30,805 bases of DNA from Alphaproteobacteria bacterium (GTDB taxonomy: Bacteria > Pseudomonadota > Alphaproteobacteria > JAGOMX01): positions 1 through 30,805 of the forward strand of contig JACVCA010000001.1 in NCBI GenBank assembly GCA_016742295.1, in the 5' to 3' direction. The position numbers and the translations under genes are program-made. This document shows positions 1 through 5,159 of the stretch, one piece after another. Every line of letters starts with the position of its first letter. Position 1 is the stretch's first letter. The notes below the pieces were generated by a model. The model made no database searches and was not told where the DNA came from. It saw only the letters and a program-made list of their open reading frames with translations.

Positions 1-1881
1 GTGCTTAGCAAGCTCATCTATTAAAAGATAGACTTCGGAAATAATCCAACGATTAATGGGATGCACAGTCTCTTGAGGCTTAAACCTTTCCTCCCACTGA
101 CATTGATTGTTCTCACACTAACGAAATGCATTCCAAATTTTGGTTGCAAAGTTTCGGTAGCCTTCAACTTGAGAGATCGAAAAATTGATATCACGTCCAG
201 GACCTGCAAGAGCTGCTAAAGCAAAGCGCAAAGCATCTGCGCCATATTTATCCATAAATTCCAAAGGATCCACGATATTGCCTTTGGATTTGGACATTTT
301 CTGGCCTTTTTCATCGCGCACTAGTGCAGTGATATAGACTTTTTCAAACGGCACTTGGCCAGTAAAATGCAGCCCCATCATCATCATACGGGCAACCCAG
401 AAGAAAATGATATCATGGCCTGTAACCAAGACTTGCGTTGGATAACAAATTTTTAATTCAGGCGTTTGATTAGGCCACCCAAGTGTTGAAAATGGCCACA
501 ATGCTGAAGAAAACCAAGTATCAAGGACATCTTCATCCTGGTTCAAGGAGACAGTTTTTCCATAATGCTTTTGTGCTTGTTCTTGCGCTTCTGCTTCATT
601 CATTGCAGCAAAAATAGTCCCATCAGGACCATACCACGCTGGAATACGATGACCCCACCATAATTGGCGGGAAATACACCAGGGCTCAATATTATTAAGC
701 CATTCAAAATAGGTTGTCGCCCAATTTTCCGGAATAAAGCTCATCTTGCCGTCTTGAACTGCTCGAATTGCAGGCTCAGCCAACACTTTGGCATTTACAT
801 ACCACTGATCGGTCAAACGGGGTTCAATAATAACCTCAGAGCGTTCTCCATAAGGCAAGGTATGTACAATAGCTTCAACTTTATCAAGTAATCCCAAGCT
901 TTCGAGTTTTGATACTATAGCCTTTCGAGCTACAAACCGATCTAATCCTCTTAAATCTTCAGGGGCTTCATCGTTCAAACAGGCATTTTCATCAAAGATA
1001 TTAATGCTTGGTAAATTGTGACGTTTACCAACAGCAAAATCATTAAAATCGTGAGCAGGTGTAATTTTCACTACACCTGTTCCCTTTTCCGGATCACAGT
1101 GCTCATCAGAGATAATAGAGATGAGACGCCCCACTAAGGGGACCACCACACTTTTTCCTACAAGATGTTGATAGCGTTTATCCTCAGGATGAATAGCCAC
1201 TGCTGTATCGCCTAAAAGCGTTTCGGGACGTGTCGTTGCAATTGTAATAAAGTGGTCTTTCTCACCATGAATGGGGTAGCGAATATACCACATATGGCCT
1301 TGAGACTCGACATTGTTTACTTCAAGATCAGACACGGCTGTATGCAGTTTTGGATCCCAGTTGACAAGCCGCTTATCTTTATAAATCAAGCCTTGTTGAT
1401 AGAGATCAGCAAAAACACGATTTACTGCCAGACTTAAGCCGTCATCCATCGTAAAACGCTCGCGAGACCAATCAGCCGAAATACCCAACCGCTTTAATTG
1501 AGAGACGATGGTTCCCCCTGATTGCGCTTTCCAAGTCCAAACACGATCAATAAATTTTTTTCGCCCTAAATCATGCCGGGTCAAACCTTCTGTATCCATT
1601 TGACGTTCAACAACCATTTGAGTTGCAATACCTGCATGGTCAGTTCCTGGTTGCCATAGCACATTAAATCCCTTCATTCGCATATATCGTACGAGAATAT
1701 CTTGAAGCGTATGATTAAGGGCATGTCCCATATGAAGGCTTCCTGTCACATTGGGAGGCGGCATCATAATGGTATAAGGTTGGGCTGTGCTGTCTGCTTG
1801 AAACGTAAATGCTTTTGAAGCTTCCCACCGAGCATACTGCGTAGATTCAATAGAGGAGGGATGATAGGTCTTTTCAAGCAT
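1..1881 (-). CDS. valS: Valine--tRNA ligase, 3'-truncated by the window edge and interrupted by an in-frame TAG at 118-120
   Basis: HIGH motif ([10 protein letters not shown]), KMSKS ([10 protein letters not shown]), [25 protein letters not shown]. After WNAFR* the same frame stays open to base 1 as [39 protein letters not shown], which resembles the start of the ValRS anticodon-binding region (NRWI). Confidence 0.97.
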
Positions 1882-1902: not shown

Positions 1903-2586
1903 CTATAAGGCTGTACTTTCTTGCTTTTCTTTCAATAGCTTTTCAATTTGCTCAGCAACCACCCACTTAACGAGCGACGGCAGATGAGCATCCATCCACG
2001 TCTTCAGCATTGGCTTCATAATGGCAAGCATGAACTCTTCCATCGTCTGTTGACCAAATGAGCCATTACTAATCATGTCGTGGACTTTCTCATTGAGCTT
2101 ATTCAAATCTTTTAAAGCGGCGACAGATTTTTGAACAGTTTCAGGGGAGAAAATTGCTTCTTGACGGCTGTGATCAGAGAGAGGGGTTTGATCATCATGG
2201 GGTAATGATTGAGACTGGCTTGTACTTTCTTCTTCTGCATCAACCAAATCCAAAATGTTTTCATAAGATTCACTTAGATTAGGGCCTATTTCAGAGGCAT
2301 TTTTCATATCAACTTTCCTCTCTTGCTTTGGCTTGAGGCGAACCACAGTTCCATCGTGACTTAAAACATCAGTTAAATCAAGGACATCTTCATTTAAAGC
2401 TTGGACTTTAAAAGAGTTATGCTTAGCAATCACTTGAGGAGGACGAGACTTAGAGCTGTGAGTCTCATGATTCTCAATATCCTCAGAAATAATCTGGCGA
2501 ATTGAAGCTAGAACCTCTTCCATTGAAGTCTCATTTTCAATATTAACTTTACTCATTAAATTTTGATCCTCTTCAGTCTTATCCAT
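1903..2586 (-). CDS. popZ: Polar organizing protein PopZ (DUF2497 family)
   Basis: N-terminal SMEEVLASIRQIISED and C-terminal TMEEFMLAIMKPMLKTWMDAHLPSLVKWVVAEQIEK match the PopZ helices, with an acidic low-complexity linker; usual tolC-popZ-valS synteny. Start could be the ATG at 2556. Confidence 0.9.
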   Translation of the reverse strand: MDKTEEDQNLMSKVNIENETSMEEVLASIRQIISEDIENHETHSSKSRPPQVIAKHNSFKVQALNEDVLDLTDVLSHDGTVVRLKPKQERKVDMKNASEIGPNLSESYENILDLVDAEEESTSQSQSLPHDDQTPLSDHSRQEAIFSPETVQKSVAALKDLNKLNEKVHDMISNGSFGQQTMEEFMLAIMKPMLKTWMDAHLPSLVKWVVAEQIEKLLKEKQESTAL

Positions 2587-2603
2587 TGCTAAGCTCTCTC
2601 GTG

Positions 2604-4151
2604 CTAGTATCCAATAAAGGTCTGCTTGGCTTCTTCAAGATGGCCTTTAATATCATAGTTTTCAACAGGAAGACGTAAATTTTTGGCCGTTAATTGTCCG
2701 ACAGCCGCAAGCACCTTATATTGATTTACGCGCTCATCACGGGTTGCTTGGAGAAGCGCCAACTGCGCCCTTAAAAAGTCTTTTTGAGCATCAAGTGCTT
2801 CGACATAAGCTCGCTCTCCAACTTCTGCTTCTAAAAGCGCCCCATCCCGCGCTCTTTCTGCTGCTTTAAGTTGTACTAATACACTTTCAACTTTCTGTTT
2901 AGCAGCAATCCAATCTTCCCAAGCAGTAATTGCAGCTTCAACCGTATCTTTACGCGCACGTTCAAGGTCAAAGCGCGCTTGCGCAGCTTTGTAGGCTCTT
3001 TGACGGATCGTGGCATATTCTCCCCCACCTTGATAAAGAGGAATTGTTAACTTAACAACTGCAGAAGCATTGTTTGATCTATCACGCGAGCTCCGCTGGT
3101 GTAAATAACGTGCTGCCCCTCCTTGAATATCGATTTTTGGCAACAACGCACCACTTGCTGCATCGACATCATTTTTAGCACTTTGTTCATTATAAATAGC
3201 CTGCAAGATTGCCGGATTCAAATCTTTTGCCATCGCTACGAGCGCATCACGTGAAACCGGCAATCCTTCTAAAGGTTTAGGTTGCACAAGGAGGCCAGGT
3301 TTGGCACCTATTACAGTCTGATATTTTGCCACAGTTTTCTGGAGGTCAGCTTCAGCATCAGAAAGTGCAGCCGTAGCTTCAGCCAACCGCGATTCAGCTT
3401 GTGCTTGATTGGTTAAGGTCTTGTCCCCCACTTCAACTGCCACCTTTAGAGCTTGTAGTTGTTCCTTCAGAAAACTCTCATTTTCCTTATTGATCTCAAC
3501 AGCTTTTTCTCTAAATATGACATCCATGTAAGTAGAAATTGCTGCGAAAAGAACTGCTTGTTCAGTATTTAAATAATCATACTGTCCAGCTAACGCTTGA
3601 TTTTCACTGCTTTCTTTATTTGCAAGATCAGTCCCGCCATTGTAAATTGACTGGCTTATATTCAAACCTGCACTTGAGGAATGAATTGTCCTACGGTCCC
3701 TTTCTCTTGCACGAGCATTAGGACTTGGATTCAGAGCAAAAGTCTGATTTTCTGTACGATTGATTCCAGTATCTGTATTGACACTAAGCTTAGGGCGAAA
3801 CTCTCCTAAACTTCTCGAAACTTGTTCGTCACGGGATTTTTGCTCTTCAACTTTACTGCGTAATTGGCTGTTGGTCATATATGCAGAAACTAATGCATCA
3901 AGGAAAGGGTTAATCTTTTCCGAGGGTCCTGCTTTAGCAACTTGATATTCACTAAGCTCTGTTTTTGCATAGGGATTTTCCACTGCCGTAGGAGAGTTGA
4001 TTACAGGTGGCAATGTCTCTGTAGCAGCAATAACTTTATGTTTTCCGGATATGAATGAGCCTAGACTTATATAAAGGAAAGTATACACTATCCACTTTTT
4101 TGGCTGCAAAGATATACAACAATAATTTAAATACATTTGCTGGTTTTTCAT
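2604..4151 (-). CDS. tolC: TolC-family outer membrane efflux channel
   Basis: ALVSAYMTN..L, two OEP repeats, LTIPLYQGG, GERAYVEALDAQ, VLAAVGQLTA. Start codon uncertain. Confidence 0.92.
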   Translation of the reverse strand: MKNQQMYLNYCCISLQPKKWIVYTFLYISLGSFISGKHKVIAATETLPPVINSPTAVENPYAKTELSEYQVAKAGPSEKINPFLDALVSAYMTNSQLRSKVEEQKSRDEQVSRSLGEFRPKLSVNTDTGINRTENQTFALNPSPNARARERDRRTIHSSSAGLNISQSIYNGGTDLANKESSENQALAGQYDYLNTEQAVLFAAISTYMDVIFREKAVEINKENESFLKEQLQALKVAVEVGDKTLTNQAQAESRLAEATAALSDAEADLQKTVAKYQTVIGAKPGLLVQPKPLEGLPVSRDALVAMAKDLNPAILQAIYNEQSAKNDVDAASGALLPKIDIQGGAARYLHQRSSRDRSNNASAVVKLTIPLYQGGGEYATIRQRAYKAAQARFDLERARKDTVEAAITAWEDWIAAKQKVESVLVQLKAAERARDGALLEAEVGERAYVEALDAQKDFLRAQLALLQATRDERVNQYKVLAAVGQLTAKNLRLPVENYDIKGHLEEAKQTFIGY

Positions 4152-4160
4152 CCTTATTCT

Positions 4161-4490
4161 TTAGTAAACTGGCATCGTAAAATCAATTTGTCGAGCCCAG
4201 GCATCAATGCCACCGGCTAAACTTACCACATCTTTAAATCCTTGTTCGCGTAGAAATAAACATGCGTTTAAACTGCGAACTCCCATGTGACATAATGTAA
4301 CGTACTTTTTATCTTTTGCAAGCTGATCAACTTCTTCTCTAAGTAGCTTAAGGGGGATATTTACATGTTCTGGGAAAGATGCCAAGCGTATTTCGAAGGG
4401 CTCGCGTACATCCAACAATATATAGGCCTCATTAGATGCTCGCAAGCGCGCAAAATTTTCTAATGAAATTTCTAAAACTTCATGAACCAT
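4161..4490 (-). CDS. Single-domain rhodanese/sulfurtransferase
   Basis: ILLDVREPFE, HVNIPL, active-site loop CHMGVRS, SLAGGIDAWARQIDFTMPVY (MoeB-type rhodanese C-terminus). Confidence 0.9.
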   Translation of the reverse strand: MVHEVLEISLENFARLRASNEAYILLDVREPFEIRLASFPEHVNIPLKLLREEVDQLAKDKKYVTLCHMGVRSLNACLFLREQGFKDVVSLAGGIDAWARQIDFTMPVY

Positions 4491-4508
4491 AAGATATCTT
4501 TATCATAC

Positions 4509-5159
4509 TCAAAAAACAAAGCGAGTGGGCAGAGAAAACTCTGGCAATGGACAAGGGGCGCAATCAAATATACTACGTTTGGAAATTAAACCATCTTGTT
4601 TTAGCAGCGTGGTTGCTTTACCAAGCTTTTCCTGTATCCACTCAATATAAGCCATTCTCCCACCCTCAGCGAGTTGAGTAAATAACTCCTCAGGAAGCCT
4701 TTGCACCCCCCCTTCAATGAGAATGGCTTGATAGGGTTTCTTTTGGGCAGTACCTCCCCAAAGGTCAGCTTTAACAATATTTTTTAAGAACTTAGGAAGA
4801 GGTGTAAGTAGATCAAGCGCTTGATCAACAAGCTTCGCATCACTCTCGAGCCCTGTTACTGAGACTGCTAGATTTTTTAAGAGCATCAACGAATATCCTG
4901 TCGTACAGCCTATCACCAATACGTTATCTTTAGGTTTAAGGGCTAGAGCTTGAATCAGCCGCGCCAGCACCATTGGCCGCAGCATAAAACGACCACTTGA
5001 AAAATAAAGTTCATCGTCTACATAAGCTACCTTTTGATCTGGCACAAAGAGTTCACGAGGAATTTCATGGAAAGCTTCCAAAAGTAACTGGTCAGTTACC
5101 TGATTAGAGCGAAGCTGACCATCAACCATGGCCTGACGCATTGTTTGAAAATCGAACAT
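4509..5159 (-). CDS. pcm: Protein-L-isoaspartate O-methyltransferase family protein
   Basis: RQAMVDGQLRSNQVTD, IPRELFVP, SAM motif VLVIGCTTGYS, PYQAILIEGGV, QLAEGGRM, LPEF...FVF; typical position upstream of tolC. Confidence 0.88.
   Translation of the reverse strand: MFDFQTMRQAMVDGQLRSNQVTDQLLLEAFHEIPRELFVPDQKVAYVDDELYFSSGRFMLRPMVLARLIQALALKPKDNVLVIGCTTGYSLMLLKNLAVSVTGLESDAKLVDQALDLLTPLPKFLKNIVKADLWGGTAQKKPYQAILIEGGVQRLPEELFTQLAEGGRMAYIEWIQEKLGKATTLLKQDGLISKRSIFDCAPCPLPEFSLPTRFVF

Follow-up and report, generated by a model that had tools for sequence, protein, structure and literature searches.

The in-frame amber codon that seems to interrupt valS, the valine-tRNA ligase (ValRS) gene of this alphaproteobacterial genome, is very probably an erroneous or unsupported base, introduced by assembly or sequencing at the end of a contig. 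The gene itself is cut by an assembly gap and not truncated. A sequencing or assembly error had already been named as the most likely option in a sequence-only reading of this DNA, and our analysis favours the same option because the TAG lies in the terminal 127-mer of its contig, beside a gap of around 630 nt in valS, and because contig C266, which lies across that gap, also has an in-frame stop near its end.

The window, i.e., the whole stretch of DNA that was analysed, is the entire contig C72 (G000:C72:1-30805; 30,805 nt), and its base 1 is a physical contig end. Reading the sequence and frame directly places the TAG at window positions 120..118 on the minus strand, as codon 588 of valS and at a distance of 118 nt from the end of C72. 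The minus strand reads AAT GCA TTT CGT TAG TGT GAG AAC AAT around the stop, the open reading frame 118..1881(-) encodes 587 amino acids, and the valS frame stays open for 39 further codons past the TAG down to window base 1, so that the initial description of an in-frame TAG followed by 39 open codons was borne out by the direct minus-strand reading. The features on which the argument turns are the following:

118..120, minus strand: in-frame TAG, valS codon 588, aligned with Tyr (TAT, nearest relative) or Phe in homologues
121..1881, minus strand: 5' part of valS, 587 codons, with the complete class-I catalytic domain, HMGH, the editing insertion, and KMSKS
1..117, minus strand: 39 valS codons past the TAG, running off the contig end, 85% identical to the nearest relative at both the amino acid and the nucleotide level
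1..127, no strand: terminal 127-mer of contig C72, containing the suspect base 118 and defined by the 127-nt overlaps of contig ends

Residues 1-587 of the valS product score 1012 bits against the equivalog NF004349 (cut-off 704), in a match that covers only positions 1-575 of the 860 positions of the profile, and 919 bits against TIGR00422 (cut-off 612), again with residues 1-587 only. The class I motifs are present as HMGH (of the HIGH type) at residues 50-53 and KMSKS at residues 528-532 (window 300..286). According to Pfam, the catalytic domain PF00133 comprises residues 16-568 of the 587-aa product, and the anticodon-binding domain PF08264 comprises residues 610-758 in the nearest full-length relative. 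The TAG thus falls into the linker between the two domains, and the product ends 55 residues past KMSKS and not, as first described, just after this motif.

Immediately upstream of valS, on the minus strand at window positions 1903-5159, lie genes for a DUF2497 protein, a TolC-like outer-membrane factor (OEP), a rhodanese, and a PCMT-like protein, in the same order as on contig L023 of the nearest relative; the adjacency of the DUF2497 gene and valS is common to both species. The remaining approximately 28 open reading frames of C72 form a dense and apparently intact gene array. One overlapping pair among them that had been suspected to be a frameshift consists of two separate genes, RsmI and UPF0102/YraN. 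The sole lesion in the 30.8 kb of C72 is therefore the one that falls into its last 127 nt.

The nearest relative, P0002 (JGI contig L023), is 90% identical at the amino acid level and 86% at the nucleotide level, in an ungapped alignment of 1881 nt (627 codons), and has TAT (Tyr) at codon 588. Tyr is likewise found at this codon in P0003 and P0004 (82% and 79% identity), while more distant alphaproteobacterial ValRS have Phe. The expectation that homologues carry Phe or Tyr at the position of the stop thus held, with Tyr in the three nearest relatives and Phe further away, and a single T>G change on the coding strand (TAT to TAG; plus-strand base 118, A>C) suffices to generate the TAG. Internal stops were absent from the valS matches among the 30 relatives searched, of which two incomplete genomes had no valS match.

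Beyond the stop, the 39 codons differ from P0002 at 4, 3, and 10 first, second, and third codon positions, respectively, i.e., mostly at third positions. Codons with only synonymous differences and codons with nonsynonymous ones stand at 7:6 downstream of the stop and at 147:58 upstream of it (Fisher p=0.21), and nothing in these sequence comparisons appears to indicate decay of the 39 codons past the TAG. Searches for a second record of the same region returned little: a degenerate 48-nt DNA pattern across codon 588 had no match in metagenome_contigs, no conspecific ValRS was found among proteins (best non-self match at 90% identity for near lengths and at 62-71% for shorter ones), and looking up the exact 587-aa sequence gave no record. 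The 587-aa "ValRS" of C72 itself sits in the protein collection as P0001.

The missing 3' part of the gene can be located in the same bin. In a tblastn search with the 90%-identical relative P0002, contig C266 proved to carry the terminal 50 codons of valS at its very end (4054..3905(-)), as a fragment that is 78% identical to the relative and matches PF10458 with E=1.6e-8; the same search with a 72%-identical relative missed this fragment and found no C-terminal part of valS in the bin. Residues 1-627 of ValRS are thus encoded on C72 and residues 841-890 on C266, with residues ~628-838 (around 630 nt) unassembled. The PF08264 region falls within this gap, and PF10458 is seen at the end of C266. 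Past the valS end, C266 carries genes for MFS and ABC transporters, arranged as on the relative's contig L023, and the next contig, C58, abuts C266 with a gap of about 1 nt and without overlap. The contig order C72-C266-C58 therefore matches L023, with the locus broken into three contigs, which fits very thin or ambiguous read support. It is the 50 terminal codons on C266 together with the gene order shared with L023 that identify valS as gapped and not truncated. Insertion of an IS element or intron at the break is ruled out, as both ends are homologous to valS up to 0-9 nt and lie about 210 codons apart.

The end of C266 carries a lesion of its own. In the valS frame, its terminal 9 nt (4055-4063, minus strand) read TTT TAA TTT. 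This TAA adds a second stop in frame, which lies 4-6 nt away from the contig end and aligns with Asp839 of the relative. Four of these nine bases differ from the relative, all of them towards T or A. We considered a fold-back artefact as the origin of the nine odd bases, but this was judged by eye and was not discriminating. In the record, the continuity of ValRS as a single polypeptide is therefore broken twice, by the TAG on C72 and by the TAA at the end of C266, and these two stops sit at precisely the two contig ends that flank one gap.

The state of the assembly gives this arrangement its meaning. The source bin is a MAG of 1.63 Mb in 317 contigs (87% complete, N50 of 6.5 kb, 38.6% GC). 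When all contig ends of the bin were compared with each other, five pairs showed exact overlaps of 127 nt, which indicates that the largest k of the assembler was around 127 and hence places base 118 inside the last k-mer of C72. Overlaps between scaffold ends with a length of n or n-1, as seen with metaSPAdes and IDBA-UD, are described as the signature of a de Bruijn assembler whose largest k is close to the overlap length (Chen et al. 2020, PMC7111523). A scan of all contig ends in the bin uncovered no clear in-frame interruption in other long frames ending within ~130 nt of a contig end; pheT, lpxD followed by fabZ, and murF followed by mraY are examples of normal gene ends near contig ends. 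A bin-wide excess of in-frame stops close to contig ends thus has no support, the other ends looking like normal gene ends, and contig-end errors are shown only at the two ends flanking the valS gap and are not demonstrably frequent across the bin.

If the TAG is an artefact, the organism's valS would be an ordinary, single-copy, and intact valine-tRNA ligase gene of which one wrong base (plus-strand base 118, A>C) was kept in the terminal k-mer of C72. This base would have gone uncorrected because read support was too thin or too ambiguous where the contig breaks inside valS, and the C-terminal third of the gene would be absent because of an assembly gap, with no truncation involved. Base 118 would then have poor read support, and the contig end is probably one of low coverage. 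An artefact gives one common cause to the break within valS, the stop in the terminal k-mer of C72, and the stop at the terminus of C266; with real mutations, the three would have to coincide by chance in an essential single-copy gene without further signs of decay.

There is a counterpoint to the simplest form of this explanation, since with reads of 150 nt and k=127 a single erroneous read cannot supply every k-mer over base 118, and the base was either carried by several reads or inherited from an assembly round at lower k. That several reads are needed to carry the base through all 127-mers would suit a real allele of a minority or co-occurring strain that the assembler followed at a branch while the dominant population has Tyr, as would the behaviour of assemblers, which halt at points of uncertainty and leave non-unique sequence in place at the ends of scaffolds (Chen et al. 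2020, PMC7111523). We nevertheless regard such an allele as very unlikely, since a nonsense mutation would not be expected to become at all common in an essential gene with a single copy and since the comparison of contig ends found no contig in the bin, and thus no alternative one, that overlaps C72:1-400. A nonsense allele that is fixed or at high frequency, with valS as a pseudogene and a second ValRS gene in the unbinned part of the genome, could draw on the presence of two in-frame stops in the valS record (TAG at codon 588 and TAA near codon 839) and on the completeness of the bin, which at only 87% could be missing a second copy. The second intact valS that had been proposed as a rescue was not found in the bin, however, where the other matches are IleRS, LeuRS, MetRS, and similar paralogues, and no relative showed two matches with scores in the range of ValRS, other than where a gene was split between contigs or an alignment fell into pieces. 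Furthermore, neither frameshifts nor an excess of nonsynonymous differences were seen before or after the stop, the alignment being ungapped over 627 codons, and none of the marks of a pseudogene (relaxed selection, further lesions, a functional second copy) was observed; the only other lesion in valS is the TAA located 4-6 nt from the end of C266. Both stops would have to lie within 127 nt of the ends flanking the gap by coincidence (127 of 1881 nt for the first, 9 nt for the second), and we consider a fixed nonsense allele very unlikely.

A real TAG could also be decoded or bypassed, be it by site-specific amber readthrough, by a suppressor tRNA, or by a ValRS made in two pieces, with separate translation of the C-terminal one. 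The stop lies exactly in the linker between the catalytic and the anticodon-binding domain, an in-frame GTG follows 18 codons downstream of the TAG with a GGGAGGAAAGG stretch in between, and the 13% of the genome that is missing from the bin leaves room for a suppressor tRNA. Yet TAG is an ordinary stop codon in the source genome. It terminates 296 of 1609 long open frames (18%), and long frames joined in pairs by one TAG (12 pairs) occur no more often than pairs joined by TAA. Nearly all of these 12 pairs have an ATG 0-8 codons past the stop and look like adjacent genes; three pairs, on C102, C152, and C201, depart from this ATG pattern. No other conserved gene is visibly interrupted. ARAGORN detected no CUA anticodon among the 28 tRNAs that it found in the 87% complete bin, and both release factors are present, with an intact RF1 that scores 503 bits against NF001859 (cut-off 400). 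Neither side of a codon reassignment is thus apparent, i.e., neither the loss of RF1 or a tRNA-CUA, nor many in-frame TAGs with a depletion of TAG as terminator.

The site itself also does not resemble a recoding signal. The stop is not conserved in relatives, which have Tyr or Phe instead, and no stimulatory structure is apparent downstream, as the fold of the 120 nt starting at the stop is no more stable than that of shuffled sequences (MFE of -23.9 versus a shuffle mean of -24.3 kcal/mol, z=0.13). The +4 base is U, which constitutes an efficient termination context according to work with E. coli. The earlier suggestion of amber readthrough or a suppressor tRNA found no support: no CUA anticodon, RF1 present, and nothing like a recoding signal. 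As regards a split synthetase, the downstream piece lacks a start codon and ribosome-binding site of its own: the GTG is the first in-frame start-type codon but has no suitably spaced Shine-Dalgarno (SD) sequence, and it encodes the conserved Val of TVHPINRW that is present in the relative, too. Decoding or bypass would moreover leave the TAA at the end of C266 to be explained as well. Altogether, we view decoding or bypass of a real TAG as highly improbable, and we attach just as little credence to its most novel form, in which the TAG is real and fixed and full-length ValRS is made with a suppressor tRNA encoded in the unbinned 13% or as a two-piece enzyme split at the linker.

A few observations on the translation machinery were made along the way. 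The SD-like GGGAGGAAAGG inside valS is found at window positions 83-93 on the minus strand, 8 codons past the TAG, where the relative has GGAGGGAAGAG; no start codon lies 5-10 nt downstream of it, and its occurrence is probably due to chance. The genes prfA (RF1, residues 8-355) and prmC (residues 395-646), the latter encoding the release factor glutamine methyltransferase PrmC, form one open frame of 651 aa on C112 (1465-3420, plus strand; L021) without a stop between them. Relatives have prfA and prmC adjacent with a stop in between, and in G003 and G004 the two genes share a frame with a TAG between them; on C112, either RF1 and PrmC are truly fused or the bin contains a further base error. 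ARAGORN also identified a permuted (two-piece) tmRNA with the tag AKANTANDNYKVVTTLMNDNMVAQAA at G000:C50 1576-1960. Permuted tmRNAs are usual in Alphaproteobacteria.

The biological import of the stop is small, since valS is a housekeeping gene of the ordinary kind with its usual neighbours. What is useful is the link between C72 and C266 and a caution for users of this record regarding lesions up to one k-mer away from contig ends: The true valS spans both contigs with around 630 nt missing and in-frame stops at both ends. Pseudogene counts, screens for codon reassignment, or inferences of essential gene loss that use this MAG should ignore lesions located within 127 nt of contig ends. Errors in uncurated assemblies are known to spread into databases as incorrect protein-coding sequences (Chen et al. 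2020, Genome Res, PMC7111523).

Set against known systems, the gene resembles bacterial ValS (NF004349 / TIGR00422; PF00133 + PF08264 + PF10458) in passing the equivalog cut-offs and in having HMGH and KMSKS, and the same protein is continued here by the 39 codons past the stop and the 50 terminal codons on C266. The gene order OEP-DUF2497-valS-MFS-ABC is the same as in the nearest relative. Unlike in the ValS of relatives, TAG replaces Tyr or Phe and residues ~628-838 are unassembled. With pyrrolysine decoding, amber suppressors, and genetic codes without RF1, the sole likeness is an in-frame TAG in a gene that needs its full length, whereas this genome has RF1, yielded no tRNA-CUA, and uses TAG as a normal terminator throughout, and the TAG in valS is neither conserved nor followed by an RNA structure. 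The local assembly errors described by Chen et al. 2020 were called by missing read support, while C72 was classified by position and comparative evidence; they are otherwise like the case of C72, with a lesion in the terminal k-mer, a fragmented bin, and contig ends that overlap by k.
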